Positions 1 through 11,394 are shown, numbered from the stretch's first letter. The stretch is 11,394 nucleotides of DNA from a virus (IMGVR_UViG_2585427657_000001), one strand, 5' to 3'. The notes: generated from the sequence alone by a model not told the origin. Numbers and translations: made by a program.

Positions 1-228
1 ATGCGTGAAGTATGGACAAGCACAGCAGCGAACGAGGAAGGATTCGAGCCGGACGTAATAGAGGCGGCACTTGCCCACGTCGACACCAACGAAGTTAGAC
101 GGGCATACAACCGGAGCAACTACATAGAAAAACGCATCGTGCTGATGCGCTGGTGGGGCGAATTTGTCGAGGCTGCGGCGACGGGCGTAACCCTCGCCAG
201 TGGTAAAAGGGGTATCCGAGCCGTGTAG
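1..228 (+). CDS. int: P4-family tyrosine integrase, C-terminal fragment; the 5' part of the gene lies upstream of the window
   Basis: Translation ...DVIEAALAHVDTNEVRRAYNRSNYIEKRIVLMRWWGEF... resembles the conserved C-terminal catalytic region of P4/CP4-57-type integrases (LAH...VRxAYNR...Y motif). Frame is open to position 1 and stops at 226-228. Confidence 0.8.
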   Translation: MREVWTSTAANEEGFEPDVIEAALAHVDTNEVRRAYNRSNYIEKRIVLMRWWGEFVEAAATGVTLASGKRGIRAV

Positions 229-305
229 CTGTACAGAAAACCAGTAAAAACTACGAAAACCATGTAAAACCGTCGTATAATTGCATCAAATTTAACGACA
301 AGGCC

Positions 306-557
306 GTGAAACATGAAACCGTTAAGATGCAAAAAAATATCAGATGCAATTGCGACGGGCTGCAACTGGCCCTGATGGTTCAGCATGAATTTTGGTCAAC
401 CTACGATCCGGAGGACAGAACGACGGCCCCATCAAAAAAACAGGTAGTAGATTTTCTGGTATCCCGTGGCGCTTCCAGAAATCTGGCGGTAAGTATTGAT
501 AAGGTCGTACGTCCGGCATCTATGAAGATCGGAGGCAGGCCCAAAAAATGGCGGTAA
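306..557 (+). CDS. Hypothetical small protein (83 aa with GTG start at 306; alternative ATG at 327)
   Basis: ORF directly followed by a rho-independent terminator at 567-591. No recognisable motif and start codon uncertain. Confidence 0.3.
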   Translation: MKHETVKMQKNIRCNCDGLQLALMVQHEFWSTYDPEDRTTAPSKKQVVDFLVSRGASRNLAVSIDKVVRPASMKIGGRPKKWR

Positions 558-566
558 CAATCCTGG

Positions 567-591
567 AAGCGGCAGAAATGCCGCTTTTTTT
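567..591 (+). terminator. Rho-independent terminator
   Basis: 8-bp stem AAGCGGCA / TGCCGCTT with GAAA loop, followed by a T-run (TTTTTTT). Confidence 0.55.
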
Positions 592-620
592 ATAATTCCA
601 TTTCAAATCATCAATATAAA

Positions 621-720
621 AACGGTGTATACCGTTTAAAAACGGTGGGAACTGTTTTTACCCATATCCGATGATTTACCGTATTTGTCACCGGAATACA
701 CCGGATTCACAAGGTAAATC
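621..720. promoter_or_regulatory. Repeat-rich region upstream of alpA (candidate operator/promoter)
   Basis: AAACGGT-gtat-ACCGTTT hairpin-like inverted repeat (622-639); direct repeat AAAAACGGTG twice; tandem CACCGGA(A/T)T repeats (689-708); 8-bp inverted repeat GATTTACC (673-680) / GGTAAATC (713-720) ending 3 nt before the alpA start. Confidence 0.3.
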
Positions 721-723
721 ACG

Positions 724-930
724 ATGGAAGCAATCAGAAAAATTATCTTTCGCCAGGAAGTAAAAAAAATTATCCACATCAAGGCAGACAGCACGCTGCA
801 AAGCATGATCAACGCCGGAGAATTTCCGCAGGGTTTTCGCGTTGGTTTACGCCGTCGCGGATGGTATGAGGATGATGTGTTGGCCTGGCAGAAAGAACGC
901 GAACAGGAAGCACGCGGAACGGCTGCTTAA
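724..930 (+). CDS. alpA: AlpA-family DNA-binding regulator (prophage CP4-57 regulatory protein family; excisionase-like HTH)
   Basis: 68-aa product; segment ...STLQSMINAGEFPQGFRVGLRRRGWYEDDVLAWQ... fits the AlpA pattern (S-T-I-Y...G-x-F-P-x-P-x-K-L-G-x-R-x-V-x-W...E-I-x-x-W). Position right after int is typical of P4-like and PICI elements. Confidence 0.75.
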   Translation: MEAIRKIIFRQEVKKIIHIKADSTLQSMINAGEFPQGFRVGLRRRGWYEDDVLAWQKEREQEARGTAA

Positions 931-1114
931 CGGGTATCACAGATATGACAAACACGAAAAAAGCGGCCCCGATATGGAGCCGCCTTTCTGAACAATTAAC
1001 CCGCTGCGCCTTATGTGTATATGATCCCAAACATAAGCACGGGGATGATAGCCGCTATCAAAAAGTAACGGGTATTTTATCAAAAAAGTAACGGGCGGCT
1101 GGTGGGCAATGCAA

Positions 1115-1288
1115 TCAGTCTGGTTCAGTTCGTTGCCATACCTGCAATGAGCGCTTTTCCCTGTATTCTTTAAGGAATTGCTCAAGGGCAAAAGCACATG
1201 GCGCGAATCTTTCTGATTCATGCTCTATCTTTCTGCGCCGTCTTTTCCGTGCCGGTGATAATGTTTTGGTCAATTCTTTATCGGTCAT
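1115..1288 (-). CDS. Hypothetical small basic protein (57 aa, MTDKELTKTLSPARKRRRRK...)
   Basis: Minus-strand ORF about 55 bp downstream of the 1346-1651 regulator gene on the same strand, with an AGGA about 7 nt before the ATG at 1288. No homology recognised. Confidence 0.25.
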   Translation of the reverse strand: MTDKELTKTLSPARKRRRRKIEHESERFAPCAFALEQFLKEYREKRSLQVWQRTEPD

Positions 1289-1345
1289 TGTGTTGTCCTG
1301 CATAGCAATGCGCCGTAATACCTTACACCACGGCGCTGATGGTGA

Positions 1346-1651
1346 TTACTCTGGTTCTTTGGTCTTGCGGCGCTGGAGTTCTTCACGTGCGACAGTGACG
1401 AGCTGCCCGATCTCCTCGGCGGCTTTGATTCCGAGTTTTTCCACCTGCGCCAGTGCATCGTGCGAAGAAATCAGGGGGTTTTCTCCGCTTCCTTCTGCCT
1501 GGCGGCGGGCGATTTCACCGCGCATGGCGGTTACTATGAATCCGGCGTTGCTTTCACCGTCCAGTTTTACGGATTCCATGCCTTCAATAACATCATGCGG
1601 GATCCGAGCTGTCAGTGATTGTGATTTTGCGTTTTTTGAACCTGTAGCCAT
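1346..1651 (-). CDS. Small DNA-binding regulator, ribbon-helix-helix (Arc/MetJ-like) pattern at the N-terminus; candidate island repressor
   Basis: Start ATG at 1651 preceded by GAGAGGA (better than the upstream ATG at 1666). N-terminal SLTARIPHDVIEGMESVKLDGESNAGFIVTAMRGEIARR fits strand-helix-turn-helix of RHH proteins. Divergent from the small-ORF/primase operon. Confidence 0.55.
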   Translation of the reverse strand: MATGSKNAKSQSLTARIPHDVIEGMESVKLDGESNAGFIVTAMRGEIARRQAEGSGENPLISSHDALAQVEKLGIKAAEEIGQLVTVAREELQRRKTKEPE

Positions 1652-1672
1652 CTGTAATCCTCTCAATGAAAG

Positions 1673-1749
1673 TGTAAGACAATATACACATAAAAAGTCT
1701 TACATAAAAGCATTGACATGTAAGCCACCTATAAATAAAGTTACTTACA
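1673..1749. promoter_or_regulatory. Divergent promoter/operator region: two inverted-repeat pairs and a candidate sigma70 promoter
   Basis: Perfect 8-bp inverted repeat TGTAAGAC (1673-1680) / GTCTTACA (1697-1704) with 16-nt spacer; second pair TGTAAG (1719-1724) / CTTACA (1744-1749); TTGACA (1713-1718) -N17- TAAAGT (1736-1741) reading rightward and overlapping the second pair. Confidence 0.45.
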
Positions 1750-1847
1750 CCTTGTTAATGCAAGGTGCAGAAACGACGAAACCCCGCACTGTAGGAGCAG
1801 TAACGGGGCTTCTAACCACCAACGATAGCAAGATTATCGAGGCAGCT

Positions 1848-2048
1848 ATGAGAAATTATACCATACACCCGCAAGGGCGGGACTCGTACAACCTGAATAA
1901 ATACATCTGGCGTTTTATCGCCCTGAGCACGGCACAACCGCGCGTGATTACCATCGAGGCCACCAGCGAACAGGAAGCGCGTCAGCAATCTCCGGCTGGC
2001 TGCGTGATGGTATTTGCTGCCCGTATTCGTCAGGGGGTAGGCTTATGA
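1848..2048 (+). CDS. Hypothetical protein (66 aa), first gene of the small-ORF/primase operon
   Basis: ATG at 1848 with GAGG 6 nt upstream; stop overlaps the next start (ATGA at 2045-2048). The longer ORF 1266-2048 is antisense to the regulator gene in its 5' part and is not supported. Confidence 0.4.
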   Translation: MRNYTIHPQGRDSYNLNKYIWRFIALSTAQPRVITIEATSEQEARQQSPAGCVMVFAARIRQGVGL

Positions 2049-2275
2049 GCCAGGAAATCACACTACAACAGGCAGCAGAACGCGCCCACCAAATCGAAGT
2101 TATTTGCGCACTGGCAGAGGATTACCCTGGCATGATGACCGACAGCGAATCAGGGGCAATCATCGGCTTACTTAAACGCCTTAGCGGTGAGGTCTGCGTA
2201 TTCCTGAGCGATGAACAGGAAAGAAGAACGCTTATTTCTAACGAAAAAAAATGCGGAGGGGTACATGTGCAATAA
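2045..2275 (+). CDS. Hypothetical protein (76 aa)
   Basis: ATGA overlap with the upstream ORF; part of a chain of coupled small ORFs. No homology recognised. Confidence 0.5.
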   Translation: MSQEITLQQAAERAHQIEVICALAEDYPGMMTDSESGAIIGLLKRLSGEVCVFLSDEQERRTLISNEKKCGGVHVQ

Positions 2276-2486
2276 AACCACACCGGACGCAGCAGCCGCC
2301 GCGCTCACTACGCTGATGCACGCGCTTATCGATATTGAATGCACTGCAGAGCTTGCGCAGGGAGAAGAACAGAAAGACCGGACACAGTTCGCCCTGGAAT
2401 GTATCCGATACATCGCAACACGGTCGCTGAATGACGCTAAAAATATTCTTGTTGCTGATTGTGAAAATGGGGGGGGTTATGCGTGA
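2265..2486 (+). CDS. Hypothetical protein (73 aa from ATG 2265)
   Basis: GGAGGGG ending 3 nt before ATG 2265; overlaps neighbours by 11 and 8 nt. The ORF track starts at 2211, but 2265 has the better ribosome-binding site. Confidence 0.45.
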   Translation: MCNKTTPDAAAAALTTLMHALIDIECTAELAQGEEQKDRTQFALECIRYIATRSLNDAKNILVADCENGGGYA

Positions 2487-2700
2487 TGATCGTTTTAATT
2501 CCCTGAAACAGGAATTTTCCGGCGTTCCTGATGATGCGGCTGATGCGCTTTCGTCAATGCCAGAACTTATTAGAGCGGCTTTTTTCTTACTTTCCACGAG
2601 AGAATATAAATCAACGGGGCTTGATGTACTGAATATCGCCGCCGATTATGCTGATTTCGTGACAGAGGTTATTTTAAGAAAAACGACGGACGGGGATTAA
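2479..2700 (+). CDS. Hypothetical protein (73 aa from ATG 2479)
   Basis: G-rich Shine-Dalgarno before ATG 2479; overlaps the upstream ORF stop. The ORF track start at 2431 would overlap the previous gene extensively. Confidence 0.45.
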   Translation: MRDDRFNSLKQEFSGVPDDAADALSSMPELIRAAFFLLSTREYKSTGLDVLNIAADYADFVTEVILRKTTDGD

Positions 2701-2701
2701 T

Positions 2702-2935
2702 ATGCGTGATATTTACCACGAAACAATAGACCGCGCATTTCTTGCACTTTCTCACAGTGAAAACATGCTGGAAATATTGCGCATATGGCTTGAAACACTT
2801 GGCGACAATGAACGCGACAAACAAAAATCAAGAATTGCCACGGCATTAATAACGCTTCTTGAGCCTGTAATAATGGAACTGCAAGAAATAGATCTATTGC
2901 ACGATAGATATAAAGAACAGCACACCGGAGAATAA
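2702..2935 (+). CDS. Hypothetical protein (77 aa)
   Basis: Starts 2 nt after the upstream stop, with GGGGA upstream. No homology recognised. Confidence 0.5.
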   Translation: MRDIYHETIDRAFLALSHSENMLEILRIWLETLGDNERDKQKSRIATALITLLEPVIMELQEIDLLHDRYKEQHTGE

Positions 2936-2940
2936 AAATA

Positions 2941-3240
2941 ATGAAACTTAAATATTCTGGCTTAACTGCCAGTGGCAACACTCACCCTAAATTTACGCGC
3001 GGCGATATTTACCGCGACCAGTACGGCGGCACGGTAATGATTAAGGGCGTGGCGGGACGGTGCGTAACTTACCGCCGTGAAGGTTACGAATATGATTGCG
3101 TGATGCCTGTTTATCAGTTCCGGCGTGATTTTTCTCTGGTACAGACCGCGCCGCATAACGTGCCCACCAGCAACGCCAGGGCACGGGCAAACATCCAGAA
3201 GCTGAAAACCATGATTAACGGATTCAGGGGTAAAAAATGA
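2941..3240 (+). CDS. Hypothetical protein (99 aa), translationally coupled to the primase
   Basis: GGAGAA Shine-Dalgarno before ATG 2941; stop overlaps the primase start (ATGA at 3237-3240). Confidence 0.55.
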   Translation: MKLKYSGLTASGNTHPKFTRGDIYRDQYGGTVMIKGVAGRCVTYRREGYEYDCVMPVYQFRRDFSLVQTAPHNVPTSNARARANIQKLKTMINGFRGKK

Positions 3241-4991
3241 AACTGGCACCGAACGTAAAACAGCAGTCACGCGGCATAAAACACAAAGGAACAGAAGTCA
3301 TTATTTTTGCGGGTAGTGATGCCTGGGCACACGCGAAACAATGGCAGGAACATGATGCGCGTATGGCCGGAGATAATGAGCCTCCTGTGTGGCTTGGGGA
3401 GCAGCAGTTATCAGAACTGGATAAGCTGCAAATTGTGCCGGAAGGCAGAAAATCCGTGCGCATATTCAGGGCCGGATATCTTGCGCCAGTAATGATAAAG
3501 GCGATTGGTCAGAAGCTGGCGGCGGCAGGCGTACAGGATGCAAATTTTTACCCTGATGGTATGCACGGTCAGAAGGTGGAGAACTGGCGCGAATATCTGG
3601 CCCGTGAGCGCCAGAATCTTTCTGATGGTCTGGTCATTGAGCTTCCGGTAAAGCAAAAGGCGCAACTTTCGCAGATGGCGGACAGTGAGCGCGCGCAGCT
3701 GCTTGCCGATCGCTTTGATGGCGTTTGCGTACATCCTGAAAGTGAAATCGTTCACGTATGGCGCGGCGGGGTATGGTGTCCGGTCAGCACAATGGAACTT
3801 AGCCGCGAAATGGTGGCGATCTATTCAGAGCACAGGGCCACTTTCAGCAAGCGCGTAATCAATAACGCCGTGGAAGCGTTAAAAGTTATTGCCGAACCAA
3901 TGGGCGAGCCGTCCGGCGATTTGCTGCCGTTCGCCAATGGTGCGCTTGACCTGAAAACGGGGGAATTTTCCCCGCACACGCCGGAGAACTGGATCACCAC
4001 GCACAACGGCATTGAGTACACGCCACCAGCACCAGGGGAGAACATCCGCGATAACGCGCCAAACTTTCATAAATGGCTTGAGCACGCAGCCGGAAAAGAC
4101 CCGCGCAAGATGATGCGTATATGTGCCGCGCTGTACATGATTATGGCGAACCGGTACGACTGGCAGATGTTTATTGAGGCCACCGGAGACGGCGGGAGCG
4201 GTAAAAGTACATTCACACACATAGCCAGCCTTCTGGCAGGGAAACAAAACACGGTAAGCGCTGAAATGACATCGCTTGATGATGCTGGTGGGCGTGCGCA
4301 GGTTGTCGGGAGTCGTCTTATCGTCCTGGCAGACCAGCCGAAATATACAGGCGAAGGAACGGGCATCAAGAAAATCACGGGCGGCGACCCCGTGGAAATT
4401 AACCCGAAATATGAAAAGCGTTTTACGGCGGTAATCAGGGCGGTGGTGCTGGCAACCAATAACAATCCGATGATATTCACCGAACGGGCCGGAGGTGTGG
4501 CACGTCGTCGGGTGATATTCCGGTTCGATAACATCGTAAGCGAGGCAGAAAAAGACAGGGAGCTACCGGAAAAGATCGCGGCTGAAATCCCTGTCATTAT
4601 CCGCCGCTTGCTGGCGAACTTTGCCGACCCTGAAAAGGCACGGGCTTTACTCATTGAACAGCGTGACGGTGATGAAGCACTGGCAATAAAGCAACAGACG
4701 GATCCGGTTATTGAGTTTTGCCAGTTCCTGAATTTTCTGGAGGAAGCACGCGGCCTGATGATGGGCGGCGGTGGCGATTCAGTGAAGTACACGACCAGAA
4801 ACAGCCTTTACCGCGTCTATCTGGCGTTTATGGCGTACGCAGGCAGGAGCAAACCGCTAAACGTAAATGACTTTGGCAAGGCTATGAAGCCAGCCGCGAA
4901 AGTTTACGGACATGAATATATTACGCGGAAAGTTAAAGGAGTAACGCAGACTAACGCAATAACAACAGACGATTGCGACGCGTTTTTATAA
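3237..4991 (+). CDS. Replication initiator: primase/helicase of the phage-plasmid P4 (alpha) / PICI Pri-Rep type
   Basis: 584-aa protein with Walker A P-loop GDGGSGKST and a following hydrophobic-Asp segment (SRLIVLADQP) typical of D5/P4-alpha-like primase-helicases. Sits between alpA and an iteron array as in satellite replication modules. Confidence 0.8.
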   Translation: MKLAPNVKQQSRGIKHKGTEVIIFAGSDAWAHAKQWQEHDARMAGDNEPPVWLGEQQLSELDKLQIVPEGRKSVRIFRAGYLAPVMIKAIGQKLAAAGVQDANFYPDGMHGQKVENWREYLARERQNLSDGLVIELPVKQKAQLSQMADSERAQLLADRFDGVCVHPESEIVHVWRGGVWCPVSTMELSREMVAIYSEHRATFSKRVINNAVEALKVIAEPMGEPSGDLLPFANGALDLKTGEFSPHTPENWITTHNGIEYTPPAPGENIRDNAPNFHKWLEHAAGKDPRKMMRICAALYMIMANRYDWQMFIEATGDGGSGKSTFTHIASLLAGKQNTVSAEMTSLDDAGGRAQVVGSRLIVLADQPKYTGEGTGIKKITGGDPVEINPKYEKRFTAVIRAVVLATNNNPMIFTERAGGVARRRVIFRFDNIVSEAEKDRELPEKIAAEIPVIIRRLLANFADPEKARALLIEQRDGDEALAIKQQTDPVIEFCQFLNFLEEARGLMMGGGGDSVKYTTRNSLYRVYLAFMAYAGRSKPLNVNDFGKAMKPAAKVYGHEYITRKVKGVTQTNAITTDDCDAFL

Positions 4992-5004
4992 TTTGTTGCA
5001 ATGG

Positions 5005-5232
5005 CTGTCTACCCTGTCTACCTGAGTAAAGAAAAATACATTTAATTCAGTGCATTAAGTTAGGTAGATAGCCTTTTTTTACTGTCTACCCACTATCTAC
5101 CCTCTCTACCTGATTTTACCTGAATCAGACAGGGAGGTAGACACGGGGTAGATAGTGGATAAAAGCACTCTACCCCGCTGAAAGCCGCGCCATTACTGGC
5201 ATGAGGGCCACTAAGGTAGATAAGGTAGACAA
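5005..5232. repeat. Iteron array; candidate replication origin
   Basis: Eleven copies of a 9-mer with core TCTACC (CTGTCTACC, CTATCTACC, CTCTCTACC and complements GGTAGATAG, GGTAGACAC, GGTAGACAA) in both orientations at 5005-5013, 5014-5022, 5063-5071, 5082-5090, 5093-5101, 5102-5110, 5136-5144, 5147-5155, 5166-5174, 5215-5223, 5224-5232, with an AT-rich stretch at 5023-5060, directly downstream of the primase gene. Confidence 0.7.
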
Positions 5233-5279
5233 GGGGAGGCACAACTCAAAACTTTTTAAACGAGGGGGTAAAAATAAAT

Positions 5280-5558
5280 ATGCACACTTCAGGGAAATTT
5301 AATAAATCACTCAAAAAACGCAGAGACAGAACAGAACCGAAATATCGCGCGTTAGACATGACAGAGCACGCTTTAAAGGTGGCAATCAGAACGATAGACC
5401 GACACGTAGGGGAAGGATACGCGAAGGAACATCCCGACCTGATAAGCGCATTCATGACCACAGCAGCGGCAAACTTTGCCACGCTGACAGAACGGGAGAT
5501 TGCCGAAGCGGAACAGGTAACAACCATCAACGTTAAAACCGGAGAGGTGGAATCATGA
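5280..5558 (+). CDS. Hypothetical protein (92 aa)
   Basis: Strong Shine-Dalgarno GAGGGGG before ATG 5280; stop overlaps the next start (ATGA at 5555-5558). No homology recognised. Confidence 0.55.
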   Translation: MHTSGKFNKSLKKRRDRTEPKYRALDMTEHALKVAIRTIDRHVGEGYAKEHPDLISAFMTTAAANFATLTEREIAEAEQVTTINVKTGEVES

Positions 5559-5997
5559 CAGCACAGATAGCCGCTTACGGGCGGCTGGTGGACGACCCGC
5601 AGGTAAAACAGACCAGCAAGGGCACACCGATGACGCTGGCGCGTATGGCGGTCCCCCTTCCGTGCAGCCAGGCAGATGACGGAACGGCGACGATGTGGTT
5701 ATCCGTCCTGGCATTTGGCAGACAGGCCGAAGCACTGGAAAGGCACCGCAAGGGTGAACTCCTGAGCGTGGCGGGCATTTGGTAAGCAGGCCGGGTAACA
5801 TGCAGATCAGCCAGTGGACTGGGCAGAACGGAGAAACGCGGCAGGGCTGGCAGGTTATCGCAGACAGTGTAATCAGTGCGCGAACGGCGCGACTGGGCGG
5901 CAAAAAAGGTCAACAGGGCCAGGCTACTGACGCGCTGAACAGGGCAAAACAACAGGCGGGGAATGATGATCCGTACGGGGATAACATACCGTTTTAA
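5555..5997 (+). pseudogene. ssb: Single-stranded DNA-binding protein (SSB)-like gene interrupted by a frameshift (frame change near 5777-5782)
   Basis: N-terminal ORF (5555-5785) ...TMWLSVLAFGRQAEALERHRKGELLSVAG resembles the SSB OB-fold (E. coli ...[28 protein letters not shown]). The downstream frame (ATG 5800 to 5997) continues with MQISQWTGQNGE... and ends DDPYGDNIPF, like the SSB acidic C-terminal tip (DDDIPF). Adding one T to the TTT run at 5778-5780 restores a continuous reading frame. Confidence 0.5.
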
Positions 5998-6012
5998 GCG
6001 ACGAGTGACAGA

Positions 6013-6035
6013 AGCCGGAGCAATCCGGCTTTTTT
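6013..6035 (+). terminator. Rho-independent terminator after the SSB-like gene
   Basis: Stem AGCCGGA / TCCGGCT with GCAA loop followed by TTTTTT. Confidence 0.6.
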
Positions 6036-6085
6036 ACGGGTCCTCCTGGCGGGGTGGGCCTGAACACGGGGCGGGAGGCGCGGAA
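6036..6085 (+). other. Degenerate cos-like remnant (third copy of the cos-associated repeat)
   Basis: GGGTCCTCCTGGCGGGGTGGGCC...ACGGGGCGGGAGGCGCGG parallels the 8502-8551 segment (GGGTCCTTCCCGGAATATGGACCC GTTACG GGGCGGCGACCT CGCGG), but the cosN 12-mer is mutated (GGGCGGGAGGCG). Confidence 0.4.
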
Positions 6086-6210
6086 AAAAGCGCATTTTTG
6101 TGATTTTATCGTCATCATCATCATGAGCGTAATTTATTGTTTTTAATTGTTTTGATGCAAAAAAGATGATGGTTGTGGTTAATTTTCGTTCGACATCTTT
6201 GCAGGCAGAT

Positions 6211-6275
6211 AGCCGGAGCAATCCGGCTTTTTTAAAAAAAGCCCGATAAGGTCAGAGGTGGCTTATCGGGCTTTT
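6211..6275. terminator. Tandem terminators: a second copy of the AGCCGGAGCAATCCGGCT hairpin, then a hairpin flanked by an A-run and a T-run
   Basis: 6211-6233 is identical to the 6013-6035 hairpin plus T-run; 6234-6275 is AAAAAAA GCCCGATAAG ... CTTATCGGGC TTTT. Confidence 0.55.
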
Positions 6276-6352
6276 GCATATGAGGCTTTTTGGTGCACTG
6301 ACACACATGATCGGGATAATCATTTCATAATTTGCAACGCAACTCAACATCA

Positions 6353-6401
6353 TTGCACAAAATGCAATCATGATTATAATCAGAGCTGGATGAACATCCA
6401 G
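6353..6401 (+). promoter_or_regulatory. Candidate promoter of the capsid operon with overlapping dyad operators
   Basis: TTGCAC (6353-6358) -N16- TATAAT (6375-6380); inverted repeat ATTGCA-caaaa-TGCAAT (6352-6368) over the -35; 16-bp near-palindrome CTGGATG-AA-CATCCAG (6386-6401) at the predicted transcript start; AAGAGGAA ribosome-binding site before ATG 6437. Confidence 0.5.
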
Positions 6402-6436
6402 TTATGATTTTTTAAGTCAAAGAGGAATTTCTTACT

Positions 6437-6643
6437 ATGGCTGAAGAGAAAAAAGGCGGTGTTTCGGTGTACATAAGCCCCGACATCGTGAAGGCGCTCA
6501 AGGAACGCCACCAGCAGAACGTAAAAGCAGGCATTGCGGCAGGACTTGATCCGCTGGCGATGGTTGAGCCGTCAACAGGCTGGCAGGTACGCTCCTATTT
6601 ACGCGCGGCGCTGGGCATAAATCAGACTCATGGGGGTGAATAA
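6437..6643 (+). CDS. Hypothetical protein (68 aa), translationally coupled to the major capsid gene
   Basis: Good Shine-Dalgarno; TAATG stop/start overlap with the capsid gene at 6641-6645. N-terminal VSVYISPDIVKALKERH could be a ribbon-helix-helix motif (weak). Confidence 0.5.
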   Translation: MAEEKKGGVSVYISPDIVKALKERHQQNVKAGIAAGLDPLAMVEPSTGWQVRSYLRAALGINQTHGGE

Positions 6644-7698
6644 TGGCAGTCAAAGCAATGGCACTTAACACACACCAGCTTTTCGCGTACCTGAATCGCG
6701 AGGATATTGCGGAATTTAAATTTAGTCCGCTGTTTACCGCGCTGTTTTTCCCGAACGTGGCGACATTCAACACGCAAAACATCATGCTGGATACCCTGGA
6801 CATTGAAGAAGTCACCATGTCGGCGTTTTGTTCGCCTATGGTGGGTAGCCAGGTTCAGCGCGATAAAGGGTACGAAACCAGCACGATTAAACCTGGCTAC
6901 ATGAAGCCAAAGCACGAAATCGATCCAACGAAAACCATCATGCGCATGGCTGGAGAAGATCCGGCACAGCTTAACGACCCTACCTATCGCCGTATGCGCC
7001 TGATTACTGGCAATATGCGCCGCCAGATAAACGCCATAAAAGCGCGCGTGGAATGGCTGGCGGTAAATGCGGTAACGACCGGAAAAAACATCATTGAGGG
7101 CGAAGGCATAGAGCGCTATGAAATCGACTGGAAGATACCGGAAAAAAACATCATAGAGCAGGCCGACGGGAAAAAATGGTCAGAGCAGGACAAAGAAACC
7201 CACGATCCAATCTATGATATCGAACTATACGCCGATCAGGCTGGTTGCCCCGCAAACGTCATGATTATGGGCGTTGAGGTATGGCGAACGTTACGCAGCT
7301 TTAAAAAATTCCGTGAGCTGTACGATCTTTCCCGTGGTTCAGAGTCCGCCGCAGAGCTGGCCTGTAAAAACCTGGGCGAAGTGGTGAGCTTTAAAGGCTA
7401 TCTGGGCGATATTGCCCTTATCGTCTATTCCGGCAAATACACTGACAGCGACGGCACAGAAAAATATTTCCTTGATCCTGATTTGCTGGTCCTGGGCAAC
7501 ACCAACAACAAAGGGCTGGTGGCCTATGGTGCGATTATGGATCAGGAAGCGGTAAGAACAGGCGCAACGCAAAACATGTACTACCCGAAAAACTGGATTG
7601 AGGACGGCGATCCGGCGATTGAGTACGTGCAGACGCACAGCGCACCGCAGCCGGTTCCGGCAGATATTCGCAAATTTGTTACCGTCAAAATTGCTTAA
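6643..7698 (+). CDS. Major capsid protein, phage lambda gpE family
   Basis: 351 aa; multiple blocks match lambda gpE as recalled: FKFSPLFTALFF (lambda FKFDPLFLRLFF), KPGYMKPKHEIDP (TPGYVKPKHEVNP), DPTYRRMRLITGNMR (DPAYRRRRIIMQNMR), WSEQDKETHDPIYDIELYA (WSKRDKSTYDPTDDIEAYA), LGDIALIVYSGKY (YGDVAIVVYSGQY), YYPKNWIEDGDPA (RYPKNWVTTGDPA), C-terminal FVTVKIA (FVSVQLA). Confidence 0.9.
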   Translation: MAVKAMALNTHQLFAYLNREDIAEFKFSPLFTALFFPNVATFNTQNIMLDTLDIEEVTMSAFCSPMVGSQVQRDKGYETSTIKPGYMKPKHEIDPTKTIMRMAGEDPAQLNDPTYRRMRLITGNMRRQINAIKARVEWLAVNAVTTGKNIIEGEGIERYEIDWKIPEKNIIEQADGKKWSEQDKETHDPIYDIELYADQAGCPANVMIMGVEVWRTLRSFKKFRELYDLSRGSESAAELACKNLGEVVSFKGYLGDIALIVYSGKYTDSDGTEKYFLDPDLLVLGNTNNKGLVAYGAIMDQEAVRTGATQNMYYPKNWIEDGDPAIEYVQTHSAPQPVPADIRKFVTVKIA

Positions 7699-7709
7699 CG
7701 GGGGATTCT

Positions 7710-8045
7710 ATGGACACTCCATACATTGAGTTATTTGCAGGCAGTCAGCAGGTATCCACGACGCTGGTACATTTTGCCGCTGATGCTGGCGTTATTCAGG
7801 AATTTACCCCGCTGATGCTGGCGGACAATGGCGAGTTTAAGCCGTGGGATGGTCAGGAATCTGGCAAGGCTGTTTATCTGACTTCGTACCTCGTGGACAC
7901 GTCAAAGCAGAAATCAGCACAGTGTTACAAGACGGGGATATTCAATATTGCCGCCGTTAACTGGCCTGAGAGCGTCGACACCGATGCGAAAAAATGCGCC
8001 GCCTTTGCGGGTTCTGGCGTATCCGTTCAGCCGCTGGCCCGATAA
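7710..8045 (+). CDS. Head decoration protein, phage lambda gpD family
   Basis: 111 aa; TPLMLADNGEFKPWDG (lambda TPLMLDTSSRKLVAWDG), CYKTGIF...NWPES (FYKSGTF...LWPEA), KKCAAFAGSGVSV (KKRTAFAGTAISI). Size matches gpD (110 aa). Confidence 0.8.
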   Translation: MDTPYIELFAGSQQVSTTLVHFAADAGVIQEFTPLMLADNGEFKPWDGQESGKAVYLTSYLVDTSKQKSAQCYKTGIFNIAAVNWPESVDTDAKKCAAFAGSGVSVQPLAR

Positions 8046-8057
8046 GCAGGGGGAACG

Positions 8058-8471
8058 ATGGCAACGAATGAAAGCATCATGGCGCTACCGCTGGCGAGTA
8101 AATTTAAAGCCGAAGCGCGGGCAATGGCTGACAGAGGTTTATCAACCTACGAGGCCGTATATCAACTCAACAAACTGGAAGAGCAGGACAAGCCGCGCGC
8201 TGATGCGATTATGGCGCTTCATGAGCATAAAGACTATCAGCCGCTGTTGCGTGCAATGGCAAACGTGCCTTGTATCGATGTTGATACGGCTAAAAACATC
8301 CTGAACATGACCATAGAGCAGGAACGCCCGAAGGTTGCACCAGAGCTTACCGCAGCCTTTGAAAACTTTATGGACATGCACAGCCCACAAACCGTATCAG
8401 CTGGCATGGCATACGATGGCAGAAACCCAGGCGATGACGGCGACATCGATCGCATACTGAAAACCATCTGA
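8058..8471 (+). CDS. Hypothetical protein (137 aa), last gene of the capsid operon, directly upstream of cos
   Basis: ORF with AGGGGGA upstream, followed by a terminator at 8478-8500. No motif recognised; position suggests a packaging or morphogenesis accessory role. Confidence 0.55.
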   Translation: MATNESIMALPLASKFKAEARAMADRGLSTYEAVYQLNKLEEQDKPRADAIMALHEHKDYQPLLRAMANVPCIDVDTAKNILNMTIEQERPKVAPELTAAFENFMDMHSPQTVSAGMAYDGRNPGDDGDIDRILKTI

Positions 8472-8477
8472 GACAAG

Positions 8478-8500
8478 GCCGGAGAAATCCGGCTTTTTTT
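8478..8500 (+). terminator. Rho-independent terminator after the capsid operon
   Basis: Stem GCCGGA / TCCGGC with GAAA loop and a 7-T run; variant of the hairpin at 6013-6035 and 6211-6233. Confidence 0.6.
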
Positions 8501-8501
8501 A

Positions 8502-8564
8502 GGGTCCTTCCCGGAATATGGACCCGTTACGGGGCGGCGACCTCGCGGTTTTTCGCTATTTATG
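8502..8564 (+). other. cos site 1: palindrome GGGTCC-N12-GGACCC, then lambda-type cosN (GGGCGGCGACCT at 8532-8543) and lambda-like proximal flank
   Basis: Sequence GTTACG GGGCGGCGACCT CGCGGTTTTTCGCTATTTATGA matches the lambda cohesive-end region as recalled (GTTACG GGGCGGCGACCT CGCGGGTTTTCGCTATTTATGAAAATTTTCCGG). No lambda-like R-site motifs are recognisable downstream. Confidence 0.7.
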
Positions 8565-8637
8565 AGCTTTTTCAGGGGGGTGGTGGTGGTTTTGTTGTTT
8601 GCTCTATCTTTATGAATGAAAAGGGAAAGATGCAAAC

Positions 8638-8675
8638 AATACACCAACCTGAAGCAGTAATTAAGTTGGTGTATT
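8638..8675. promoter_or_regulatory. Perfect 11-bp inverted repeat AATACACCAAC / GTTGGTGTATT (16-nt spacer) between cosN and the terS start; candidate cosB recognition element or operator
   Basis: Seen directly: 8638-8648 and 8665-8675 are exact reverse complements, ending 1 nt before ATG 8677. Confidence 0.4.
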
Positions 8676-8676
8676 A

Positions 8677-9219
8677 ATGAAATCGCACCTGATGAACAAA
8701 AAAAACATGGCGAAAAGCTGCCGTGTAAGTGCGACAGCGTTCGACAAGTGGGGAGTGACTCCCGTTGAACGTAAAGGCCGTGAGGCGTTTTACGATGTTG
8801 CCAGCGTGATAGACAATAGGGTTAACAATGCAATTAGCCAGCTTACAAACGACAAAGGCGATATTGATGATGATGAACTCTTACGAGTCAGGATCAGATT
8901 ACTGACAGCACAGGCGGAGGCGCAGGAACTTAAAAACGAGCGCGATCGCGGTGACGTGATTGATACTGAGTTTTGCCTGTACGCGCTTTCAAAGCTGGCG
9001 AGTCAGATTTCATCAATCATGGACAGCCTCCCGCTTACTATGCAAAGGAGCTTCCCACAGATTACCCCCGCCATGCTGGATAGGCTTAAAAGGGAAGTGG
9101 TTAAAGCCTGTAATGCCAGTGCCAGAGTTGCCGACAACCTCCCACAGATACTGGCTGATTACTTGAAAGAAACAACCGGAAACGTACCGGAAAAGTTGCT
9201 ACAGAAGAAAGGCGAGTAA
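8677..9219 (+). CDS. Small terminase subunit, lambda Nu1 family (start may be ATG 8692, giving MNKK...)
   Basis: LTAQAEAQELKNERDRGDVIDTEFCLYALSKLASQISSIMDSLPLTMQRSFPQI matches lambda Nu1 LTRAQADAQELKNARDSAEVVETAFCTFVLSRIAGEIASILDGLPLSVQRRFPEL; C-terminal LADYLKETTG matches LLSEYIEQSG; N-terminal MNKK matches Nu1 MEVNKK. Gene sits immediately downstream of a cosN, as in lambda. Confidence 0.85.
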   Translation: MKSHLMNKKNMAKSCRVSATAFDKWGVTPVERKGREAFYDVASVIDNRVNNAISQLTNDKGDIDDDELLRVRIRLLTAQAEAQELKNERDRGDVIDTEFCLYALSKLASQISSIMDSLPLTMQRSFPQITPAMLDRLKREVVKACNASARVADNLPQILADYLKETTGNVPEKLLQKKGE

Positions 9220-9239
9220 CAGACGCGCAATTATTGAAC

Positions 9240-9441
9240 AAAACTGAGAAACGACATGAAAGCGTCATAAATCGCCATTTTAGATGATTACCGTGTCGTT
9301 TCTTTTTATTGTGTATCTATTTAAAAACAAATAGTTATGTTCGAGAAGTACCGACATGCTTTTTCCAGAAAAATTTTCATAAACAGATAAAACCCGCGAG
9401 GTCGCCGCCCCGTAACGGGTCCATAATTCCAGGAAGGACCC
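9240..9441 (-). other. cos site 2 (inverted): lambda-type cosN (minus strand of 9399-9410) with lambda-like cosB (R3/I1/R2/R1-like segments) and upstream GGGTCC/GGACCC palindrome
   Basis: Minus strand reads GGGTCCTTCCTGGAATTATGGACCC GTTACG GGGCGGCGACCT CGCGGGTTTTATCTGTTTATGAAAATTTTTCTGG ...ACTTCTCGAACATAACTATTTGTTTTTAAATAGATACAC...AAAGAAACGACACGG...CATGTCGTTTCTCAG, which parallels the recalled lambda left end (TTCTTCGTCATAACTTAATGTTTTTATTTAAAATACC, AAAGGAAACGACAGG, CTGTCGTTTCCTTTCTC). Confidence 0.65.
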
Positions 9442-9475
9442 GACGACACCAGACAATCAGAACGATGGGTGCACA

Positions 9476-9757
9476 ATGACAGAAGCCGAAATACTGGGAT
9501 TAATCCGCCGTGCTGGTGGAATCAGCCAGCAGACTGACGAACAGGCCACGCAGCCGGACAGCGTGACAGCCGAAAATTATGCGCGTGTTGTTGCTGAGGT
9601 GATGCGCCGTGATGGTATCCAGCTTAATGATGTGGATATGCGCAACATACGGATCCGCGTTCTTGAAATGCTGGCCTACAATCGCCGCGTGGCACTGTAT
9701 CGGGAAACGGAGAAAATTACATACCACTGGAAGAAGCCGGAGCGGTTGCGGCGGTAA
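9476..9757 (+). CDS. Hypothetical protein (93 aa)
   Basis: ORF between cos 2 and the att repeats with protein-like composition. Weak ribosome-binding site; no homology recognised. Confidence 0.4.
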   Translation: MTEAEILGLIRRAGGISQQTDEQATQPDSVTAENYARVVAEVMRRDGIQLNDVDMRNIRIRVLEMLAYNRRVALYRETEKITYHWKKPERLRR

Positions 9758-9758
9758 C

Positions 9759-9927
9759 TGGTTGATATTTTCGAAATTCGCCAGCGGCGAACATCGGGGA
9801 AACCAGCCTAACCCGTTGATATTTTCGGGAACCTCAAATTGAGGAGGTCGGAAACATAACCCGTCATATTCTGGATGCTGATAATTACCACGCAGCCCAT
9901 TAAGGCCTAACCCGTTGATTCTTTCGG
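9759..9927 (+). repeat. Direct repeats of a roughly 20-bp motif (CCTAACCCGTTGAT(A/T)(T/C)TTTCGG) at the island/chromosome junction; candidate attR and integrase-binding repeats
   Basis: Copies at 9760-9773 (partial), 9807-9828, 9856-9874 (degenerate) and 9906-9927; the 3' part of the motif (TCTTTCGG) recurs inside the phoQ 3' end at 9941-9948. Confidence 0.5.
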
Positions 9928-9933
9928 ACATAT

Positions 9934-11394
9934 TTATTCATCTTTCGGTGCAGAATGCTGGCGACCAAAAATCACTTCCATCCGCGCACCGCCCAGCATG
10001 CTCTCTCCGGCGACGATTTTACCCTCATATTGCTCGGTGATTTCGCGGGCTACCGCCAGCCCCACACCTTGCCCAGGGCGTAAAGTATCAACCCGTTGAC
10101 CACGGTCGAAAATGACCTCTCGCTTGCTTAATGGAATACCGGGGCCATCATCCTCGACCACAATATAGAGATGCTCGTCGGTTTGCCTTGCAGAAATTTC
10201 GACAAATTCGAGGCAATATTTACAGGCATTATCCAGCACATTACCCATCACCTCGACAAAATCGTTCTGCTCACCAACAAAGCTGATCTCTGGCGAAATA
10301 TCGAGAGAGATATTGACCCCTTTGCGTTGATACACTTTGTTCAGCGCCGAGGTGAGATTGTCCAACAGTGGGGCGACCGGATGCAGCTCGCGGCTAAGCA
10401 ATGTCCCGCCGCGCATACTGGCACGATGCAGGTAGTAGCCAATTTGCTGTGAAATGCGGCTGATTTGCTCCAGCATTACCGGCTCAGCATCACTGACGCT
10501 CATCTTCTCACTACGCAGAGAACGCAGCGTACTTTGCAGCACCGCCAGTGGCGTTTTCAGACTATGGGTCAGGTCGGTGAGCGTCGTACGATATTTGTCG
10601 TAACGTTCGCGTTCACTTTTTAACAGTCGGTTCAGGTTTCGTACCAGACTGGTCAGTTCTCGCGTTGTGGCTGGATTGAGCAATTCACGGTTATGTTCTT
10701 CCAGTTCGCGGACTTCTTTTGCCAGGGCTTCGATGGGGCGTAAACTCCACCAGGCGGCGACCCACAGCAGCGGGATCACTAACAGCAGATTGGCTGAGAG
10801 CACATAGATAAACCAGCTCCAGACCATATAGGAACTTTTTAGCTCCACCGGAATGGTATCCACCACCACAATGGTTAACTTTGGCATCCGCGATGTTGCC
10901 GGGTAGACGTTTACCGCCACCGAGTGGGTCATCTCCGCGTCGTCATCATCTTCCCGCACTTCCTGCAACTGTTGCTGTATCGAATGATCTCCACTCAGCA
11001 AGAGGCTGGTATCGTTAACATCCGCTTCAATTTCATGAAAACCATTCGATTTCAGCCAGTCAGGCTGGATCATCTTCATCAGCCAGGGCACGTCACGTTG
11101 CGCCCATAAAAGCTGCCCGTTCTCATCATAAATTAGTGTCATCGTGGGGCTTTGCTTGTCGATATTTTCGGGTAACTCGACATGCAACTTATTGTTTTCC
11201 CACTTCGCAAGGGTATAGAACAGATTGCTCTCGCCACGTAACAGCCGAAACGTGGTTTTATCGAAACTGACGCTATAACCGATCAGCGCAACCATTCCGT
11301 AGGCAAGCGAAAGCACCAATACTACTGCTGCCGTTGCTAACAGAAAACGTACCCGCAGCGAGAGCGGGAAAAAAAGATGCAGTAATTTTTTCAT
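9934..11394 (-). CDS. phoQ: Sensor histidine kinase PhoQ (PhoP/PhoQ two-component system), complete
   Basis: 486-aa product recognised as E. coli-type PhoQ ([68 protein letters not shown]...; periplasmic acidic patch EDDDDAEM; H-box [14 protein letters not shown]; G-box DDGPGI). Start codon is the last three bases of the window; phoP would lie beyond the right edge. Confidence 0.97.

Follow-up and report, generated by a model that had tools for sequence, protein, structure and literature searches.

Terminator-fused cos regions of two phage types around the capsid operon of an Escherichia coli phage-inducible chromosomal island

In the 11,394-nt viral sequence IMGVR_UViG_2585427657_000001 (the whole stretch analysed, hereafter the window), an operon of lambda-type capsid genes lies between two direct copies of a hairpin, a T-run and a cos (cohesive-end) packaging site. 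How did this bracket arise, and does the upstream cos, which departs from that of phage lambda, still have a role? The window is a ~10-kb E. coli phage-inducible chromosomal island (PICI) of the EcCICFT073 family, adjoining phoQ. A sequence-only reading had proposed that the capsid operon was inserted at a lambda-type cos with duplication of terminator and cos, after which the upstream copy was mutated and inactivated. Our analysis points instead, with a probability of about 0.7, to two cos regions that stem from different phage families and are each joined to a stereotyped terminator, with cos sites and terminators serving as the joints of a mosaic history.

The upstream and downstream cos regions

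The true offset of the two copies is 2464 nt; their earlier pairing as 75-bp direct repeats (6011-6085 and 8477-8551) is 2 nt out of register and gives an ungapped identity of 22/75. What is repeated is the left part, a hairpin of the form GCCGGAG-NAA-TCCGGC followed by a T-run and the cosQ sequence GGGTCCT, which is 36/38 identical by local alignment between 6014-6044 and 8478-8508. Past GGGTCCT the identity is 54% over 165 nt, and the pairwise local score of 18 is not significant against 500 dinucleotide shuffles (17.4 ± 2.4). The pattern GGGTCCT-N20-26-CGGGGCGG has three matches in the window (6038+, 8502+ and 9441-) and none in 200 shuffles, and at each the cosQ stands 30-31 nt before the cosN position, as in lambda. 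The 12-nt cohesive-end sequence of lambda, GGGCGGCGACCT, is present in the downstream (8532-8543) and inverted copies; the upstream 12-mer GGGCGGGAGGCG (6069-6080) differs, matching it at 7/12 positions, and the upstream stretch from GGGCGG to CGCGG is 2 nt shorter than in lambda. Lambda cos consists of cosQ, cosN and a cosB with the elements R3-I1-R2-R1, and its R sequences are in neither direct copy. Alignment of eight cos regions yielded a lambda group, made up of lambda and both lambda-type window copies, and a VT1/mEp460 group that holds the upstream copy, the single cos of L002-type islands, VT1-Sakai, Stx2_95 and mEp460.

A query of 6020-6205 against phage genomes returned nine records at 87-91% identity over 170 nt, including VT1-Sakai and several Stx2-converting phages. 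Over 165 nt the upstream copy is 91% identical to Stx2_95, 88% to VT1-Sakai, 92% to L002 islands and 54% to lambda. The 88-91% likeness to VT1-Sakai (Sp15) and the Shiga toxin (Stx) phages, over ~165 nt, takes in cosQ, the cosN type, the CAT repeat, the A/T tract and an inverted GATGATGG. The homologue in the matched phages always lies between Rz (a lysis gene) and terS, the cos position of lambdoid phages, a placement seen in VT1-Sakai, Stx2_95 and about 50 viral contigs. Exact-pattern scans of IMG/VR for the cosN region found its phage form in 62 contigs and the mEp460 form in 67. Many of these contigs are phage-sized and have the order Rz-cos-TerS-TerL-(protease-capsid fusion), and 51 phage-context copies with a GGGCGGGCGG-type cosN core show Rz-cos-TerS-TerL synteny.

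In the phages, the R3-position motif and the class of the small terminase (TerS) vary together. The motif CATCATCATCAT goes with a TerS at least 97% identical to that of VT1-Sakai (18/18 phage copies), and CACCATCACCACCA goes with a TerS 68-78% identical to it (32 phage copies). The inverted GATGATGG element and the A/T tract of the upstream copy align with lambda I1 and are putative cosB elements. Compared with 19 phage copies of the matching class, the upstream copy differs at 4/133 phage-invariant columns and at 14/32 variable columns (Fisher p = 1e-8).

The cosN-like 12-mer, the CAT×4 run at 6113-6124 and the TTATTGTTTTTAATTG tract that had been picked out from the sequence are all present. 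Their interpretation as a mutated cosN followed by a degenerate lambda-like region has to be given up, since these same features are native to VT1-Sakai and the Stx phages and thus belong to the cos of another lambdoid family. Judged by these comparisons, the upstream site comprises an entire cos region of the VT1-Sakai/Stx-phage lambdoid group and is not a decayed duplicate of the downstream copy. Two other identifications were discarded. A match of 6069-6092 to the 19-nt cohesive end of P2/P4 needs two indels and was dropped when the VT1-Sakai match appeared. The start of the mEp460_4F5 record is unreliable as a true cohesive end, being 4 nt upstream of the lambda-equivalent position with its core 3 nt off mEp460.

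The setting of the upstream cos is not that of its phage relatives. VT1-Sakai-type phages have a GATAAYCATTATCA palindrome before the cos, which stands between Rz and terS, and the heads of the VT1-Sakai/Stx-phage group are built with a protease-capsid fusion protein. The island copy comes after ssb and the hairpin, carries one private cosN change and leads into lambda E/D-type capsid genes, not terS. The upstream cos is present in 164/5426 complete E. coli genomes, including Nissle 1917 and ATCC 25922. The segment 6025-6200 is also the sole cos of L002 islands, which have a ClpP-like protease/capsid fusion, and there it lies between the fusion gene and the 93-aa open reading frame (ORF).

The downstream cos is of the lambda/21 type, with a cosQ-to-nick distance of 30 nt and a cosN identical to that of lambda at 12/12 positions. 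In position it corresponds to cos1 of EcCICFT073 (PMC6092414, PMC6739421), an island whose cos1 and inverted cos2 have been shown experimentally to mediate transfer by lambda and phi80 (PMC6092414, PMC6739421). In the window it directly precedes an island terS, and the inverted cos lies beyond this gene.

Terminators, borders of the capsid block and related islands

Three hairpins of the same type occur around the capsid operon: T1 after ssb, T2 at the left border of the capsid block and T3 after the operon. On folding, all three form stable stem-loops with a U-run directly 3' of stop codons, and they are predicted terminators. The promoter/terminator scan called T2 alone of the three and no capsid promoter, so that we relied on folding and on reading of the sequence. 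In the fetched loci the hairpin type has 77 copies, 62 of them fused directly to cosQ (38 after ssb, 21 after the 137-aa ORF), and it has none in 38 phage-context loci; the hairpin is island-specific. T2, which had been overlooked along with the inverted cos at 9441-9370, is a clean 24-nt insertion relative to Nissle 1917 and is private to the window among upstream-cos islands. In this context it is absent from Nissle, from all E. coli genomes with the junction (121+) and from 18 IMG/VR islands; it is found after PerC in CFT073-type islands. A single '>=99%' record that seemed to represent another genome with T2 beside an upstream cos proved to be a split match, and no genome has T2 there.

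The left border of the conserved capsid block is not at the repeat (6011), as had been supposed, but at 6205-6235, and homology with islands that have no upstream cos starts at 6205-6212. In such islands (L003, L012, CFT073) the slot 5' of the block holds PerC or other small genes. The capsid block with the downstream cos occurs in 589/5426 complete E. coli genomes, and in 164 of these genomes the upstream cos is joined to it. The expectation that related islands would have repeats on both sides of the block is contradicted by the other ~425 (about 72%), EcCICFT073 included, which have the block without an upstream cos-like copy and with only the hairpin. After the downstream cosN, siblings carry three alternative sequences, with terS or, in either orientation, rppA as cargo, and the conserved capsid unit is therefore taken to run from the large hairpin at 6235 to cosN at ~8548.

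We tabulated 160 loci for island layout. A recurrent order is ssb, upstream cos, capsid module (of E/D type or a protease-capsid fusion), downstream cos, a terS-like gene or rpp, and the 93-aa ORF. In a sister lineage (L011-type), two near-identical direct cos sites lie ~2.5 kb apart around a protease-capsid fusion gene, and the capsid-less islands L094 and L146 have a single hybrid cos whose left part corresponds to the upstream copy of L011 and whose right part corresponds to its downstream copy. Between the window and L086/L071 there is no difference from ssb through T1, cosQ and the spacer to GGGCGGG, after which they continue into different cosB classes and capsid modules. The left half of the upstream site (terminator, cosQ, spacer and the start of cosN) is thus a backbone common to siblings with other right halves, so that crossovers fall inside cosN. 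Islands of the L117 type have the same E/D capsid block behind an upstream cos that is 91% identical to that of phage mEp460, and the 12-mer of their downstream cos is changed to the mEp460 type. Family islands also occur between terS and terL of VT1-Sakai/mEp460-type prophages (L031/L076, L066, L088, L091, L110, L134 and L151); these fit the 'helper-embedded satellites' of a 2022 preprint.

As read from these alignments, breakpoints in this island family fall in cosN and at the hairpins. We infer that cos sites fused to terminators act as joints for the exchange of replication, capsid and terminase modules. Exchange could proceed by homologous recombination or by recombination stimulated by cos cutting, of islands with each other and with helper phages. 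In lambda, double-strand cuts made by terminase at cos stimulate recombination. If the identical cohesive ends of two cos-bounded DNAs annealed, the insert would come to be flanked by two direct cos sites.

The idea of the capsid operon as a cassette at cos holds up in part: it is an exchangeable module with cos joints, as the hybrid cos of L094 and L146 indicates, but insertion with duplication is not the history of this island. Flanking copies that derive from one another, with a single copy at the empty site, are found in the protease-capsid sister lineage and not here. For the window, we give hardly any credence to a duplicated lambda-type terminator and cos with later mutation of the upstream copy, even though hairpin, T-run and cosQ are nearly identical in both copies and the sister lineage, with its near-identical cos pair and capsid-less single-cos relatives, offers a model for it. 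Past cosQ the two copies are too unlike (54%), and each is ~90% identical to a different phage family; the supposed mutations are common to 19 phage copies; the capsid block lacks an upstream cos in ~425 genomes, EcCICFT073 among them; and a synthetic query for the 'empty' ssb-T1-cos1-terS junction had no contiguous match in the 5426 genomes.

Possible roles of the upstream cos

We see a little less than an even chance that helper terminases of the VT1-Sakai class can still package from the upstream site, in which case the island would have a second helper range; failing that, the site would be a conserved remnant of the exchange of modules. The site is full length in 19/19 siblings, though their flanking genes differ by up to 21%, and no part of the region is less diverse than its cosB part (0.011 vs 0.02-0.12 in flanking genes of the 19 sibling islands). 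The avoidance of phage-invariant positions by its substitutions also speaks for function, as do the different, phage-matched cos that a second lineage (L117) holds at the same place and the islands with a near-identical primase that are embedded beside the cos-terS of VT1-Sakai-class prophages (L066). Several observations weigh against such use. The A at 6076, in cosN, is at a phage-invariant position and occurs in island-sized contigs only (17/17), never in phage context. The cosQ is mutated in 3/19 siblings (GGGTTCT, GGGGCCT), which is never the case in downstream copies. Most host genomes hold the upstream-cos sequence once only, that is, they have no resident phage with a matching cos, and most islands with this capsid block have no upstream cos. 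Low diversity spans the 3' end of ssb through T1 to the promoter and could reflect a shared recent recombination block instead of selection.

These points can also be assembled into a different account, in which the upstream cos is a non-functional leftover: an ancestral VT1-Sakai-type cos stood after ssb, as in L002/L094-type islands, a lambda-type block of capsid genes, cos and terS was joined to it later, and the old site persists in a co-spreading recombination block. The C-to-A change in cosN that no phage copy shares, the mutated cosQ of three of the 19 siblings, the lack in most hosts of a co-resident phage bearing an upstream-type cos, the 72% of islands that dispense with the site and the low diversity of neighbouring segments all agree with it. 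Simple decay sits less easily with a site that shows no indels or truncation in 19 islands with flanking genes differing by up to 21%, and whose substitutions spare phage-invariant positions (4/133 vs 14/32). The L117 islands, where a 91% match to the mEp460 cos is paired with a downstream cosN of the same type, are hard to explain by passive decay. We regard the leftover account as possible, though on balance doubtful. A third proposal, that the upstream site is a decoy whose intact cosB titrates the VT1-Sakai-class small terminase while the altered cosN blocks cutting, appears very improbable. Its cosB part is indeed the best-conserved segment, with the changes sitting in cosN and cosQ, and interference with helper packaging is known for this island family (PMC6739421). 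A single site per island copy would be a weak sink, however, a working cos would give the same conservation pattern, and no precedent was found in the PICI literature (PMC6092414, PMC6739421, PMC9026076 and preprints).

Returning to the upstream cos as a working signal, one may go further and suppose that a single island is packaged by two unrelated terminase families, through its own TerS at cos1 on a lambda/21-type route and directly at the upstream cos on a VT1-Sakai/Stx-phage route, and that the terminator-fused cos sites serve as joints for swapping capsid and terminase modules with helpers and among themselves, through cos cutting or end joining. This combined proposal would explain the recurring layout of two direct cos sites around a capsid module as well as the hybrid single-cos islands, but we advance it tentatively and hold it to be rather doubtful as a whole.

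The island and its relation to known systems

Bases 19-9928 of the window share 99.5% identity with a ~10-kb island present in E. coli Nissle 1917, ATCC 25922 and others, and the right flank (9934-11394, minus strand) is phoQ, 99.8-100% identical to CFT073. The genes are, in order, those for an integrase, a helix-turn-helix (HTH) regulator, Icd-like proteins, DUF4222, a primase, ssb, the major capsid protein, the head decoration protein, the 137-aa ORF, a 'terminase small subunit' and the 93-aa ORF. This is the layout of EcCICFT073-family PICIs (int-alpA-icd-primase-ori-ssb, about 10 kb, a single direction, packaging genes 3') and is syntenic with CFT073. Features of the packaging region are given in Table 1. 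Rfam and tRNA scans of the window gave nothing relevant. Short ORFs over 5924-6221 are without support and overlap DNA that is noncoding in phages. A capsid-protein scan of the genome contigs had no match.

Table 1 Features of the packaging region of the island (window coordinates)
Feature	Position	Strand	Remarks
T1, predicted intrinsic terminator after ssb	5998-6037	+	hairpin GCCGGAGCAATCCGGC 6014-6029, T-run 6030-6035; -18.6 kcal/mol, z -3.9
Upstream cos, VT1-Sakai/Stx-phage type	6038-6200	+	cosQ GGGTCCT 6038-6044; cosN-like GGGCGGGAGGCG 6069-6080; phage homology stops at 6200
Upstream cosB part, putative	R3-position CAT×4 within 6110-6127 (run 6113-6124); A/T tract ~6128-6160; inverted GATGATGGTTGTGGTT 6165-6180	+	from sequence comparison
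T2, further exact copy of hairpin and T-run	6211-6234 (hairpin 6212-6233)	+	directly at the border of the capsid block
Large terminator-like A-run/hairpin/T-run, bidirectional	6235-6277	.	folds with T2 at -36.4 kcal/mol, z -5.3; left border of the capsid block, alignment to islands without the upstream cos opening here or at T2
Predicted promoter/operator region of the capsid operon	6278-6436	+	TTGCAC...TATAAT read by eye; repeated TTGCAA/ATGCAAT motifs; 97-100% conserved among siblings
Capsid operon	6437-8471	+	68-aa ORF, E-like, D-like, 137-aa ORF
68-aa ORF	6437-6643	+	first ORF of the capsid operon
Lambda E-like major capsid protein	6643-7698	+	Pfam Phage_cap_E 3e-52; PHROG major head family
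Lambda D-like decoration protein	7710-8045	+	Pfam HDPD 6e-17; PHROG head decoration family
137-aa ORF	8058-8471	+	matches C-terminal part of head maturation protease family (phrog_53 positions 494-567)
T3, predicted terminator after the capsid operon	8472-8501	+	hairpin GCCGGAGAAATCCGGC 8478-8493, T-run 8494-8500; -14.6 kcal/mol; kept in all E/D-type islands
Downstream cos, lambda/21 type	8502-8676	+	cosQ 8502-8508; cosN GGGCGGCGACCT 8532-8543; island-specific cosB with GGTGGTGGTGG at bp 48-58
Island small-terminase homologue, Nu1 family, 180 aa	8677-9219	+	Pfam Phage_Nu1 2e-23; 35% identity to lambda Nu1 over 179 aa
Inverted lambda-type cos (cos2 equivalent)	9300-9441	-	phage-21/CFT073-prophage-like cosB; inverted repeat with 8502-8572
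93-aa ORF	9476-9757	+	phrog_1561 1e-55; right end of all family islands; after the last cos in every architecture

The consensus promoter scan of the window called no promoter for the capsid operon, so the promoter is proposed from reading the sequence. Around the promoter-like site (TTGCAC-N16/17-TATAAT), repeated TTGCAA/TTGCAC/ATGCAAT motifs occur at 6280-6400. The 97-100% conservation of this segment among siblings suggests that the TTGCAA-type motifs are operators. The 137-aa ORF is labelled 'head-tail connector' in the sources and may be a Nu3-like scaffold.

The gene at 8677-9219 was considered as rppA, Rpp being taken as 139-154 aa with an RppC-like fold and encoded beside cos. It is instead a 180-aa Nu1 homologue with no RppC match in PDB; the 144-aa gene in the same slot of L012/CFT073 matches the RppC structure at 5e-31. 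The terS-like gene is enclosed by a ~70-nt inverted repeat made of the cos copies at 8502-8572 (plus strand) and 9441-9370 (minus strand). In the corresponding slot, siblings carry rppA, forward in CFT073 and L018 and reverse in L012, and by this comparison the segment between the inverted cos sites appears to be invertible or swappable. The inverted cos (9441-9370) is 88-94% identical to the 8502 copy; with the lambda and CFT073-prophage cos it shares 72-75% identity over 165 nt. Its cosB (9300-9394, minus strand) resembles that of the CFT073 prophage, with a phage-21-type R3 (ATGTCGGTACTTC) and an A/T tract, at 75% over 165 nt; the published account of EcCICFT073 reports no recognisable phage cosB. 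At the R3 position of cos1 the window has GGTGGTGGTGG (8579-8589) and EcCICFT073 (L160 7611-7623) has the reverse-complement motif CACCACCACCAC; the cargo differs in parallel, with terS in the window and rppA in EcCICFT073.

A few further observations concern the island as a whole. Relative to the Nissle and CFT073 alleles, ssb has a 20-nt insertion at 5772-5791 that leaves ORFs at 5555-5785 and 5779-5997, and the insert resembles the CFT073-type allele of a segment ~60 nt upstream; the split ssb represents a pseudogene or, alternatively, a scar of assembly or recombination. At 1061-1096, 3' of the HTH regulator gene, the window has 36 nt (AAAAGTAACGGG... repeated) that are inserted relative to Nissle 1917. 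The few differences from the Nissle island at 8500-8522 and 9393 are CFT073-type alleles sited at hairpin/cos repeats, and the flank from 9929 is CFT073-like phoQ. From these alleles, the island appears to be of Nissle type, sitting in the phoQ site and carrying small patches of CFT073 type. Just 3' of the primase gene, 21-nt direct repeats (CTGTCTACCCTGTCTACCTGA) occur at 5005-5025 and 5093-5113, with an inverted repeat at 5087-5161; this is the expected location of the island replication origin. A 23-mer of the GCCTAACCCGTTGATATTTTCGG type has three copies in 9752-9927, at the right end of the island, and a fourth at 11149; these may be integrase arm or att-related sites.

The closest described relative is EcCICFT073 (Fillol-Salom 2018, 2019; Murialdo & Feiss 2022). 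Like the window it occupies the phoQ site, has a capsid block 93-98% identical, the T3 hairpin with a lambda-type cosQ/cosN after the capsid operon, and an inverted cos before the 93-aa ORF. The window is its sibling and not the same island, since EcCICFT073 has PerC in the slot of the upstream cos, and thus two cos sites and not three, and rppA (144 aa) in place of the Nu1-type terS. Helper induction and transfer have been demonstrated for EcCICFT073 only (PMC6092414). P4, SaPIbov4 and SaPIbov5 likewise package via a helper-type cos, and two cos sites within one satellite have been reported for SaPIbov4 (PMC6092414). The window departs from these satellites in that its cos sites belong to different phage families, are joined to terminators and stand at module boundaries. 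Already known are PICI cos sites, pairs of cos within an island, Rpp and island TerS; neither a cos of another family upstream of capsid genes nor a recurring direct-cos bracket with hybrid single-cos derivatives was found in the PICI literature cited above.

Islands of this kind spread virulence and defence genes by hijacking phage packaging, and their cos sites determine which phages move them. The third cos site described here was missed by annotation pipelines and by the published two-cos picture based on EcCICFT073, and should be of moderate interest to researchers on satellites and lambda packaging. A functional upstream cos could let Shiga-toxin-type lambdoid phages move the island, besides those of the lambda/21 type. 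If cos sites are module joints, they would provide a concrete, testable route for the mosaic evolution of satellites and helpers, and would explain the gain and loss of capsid genes in these islands.

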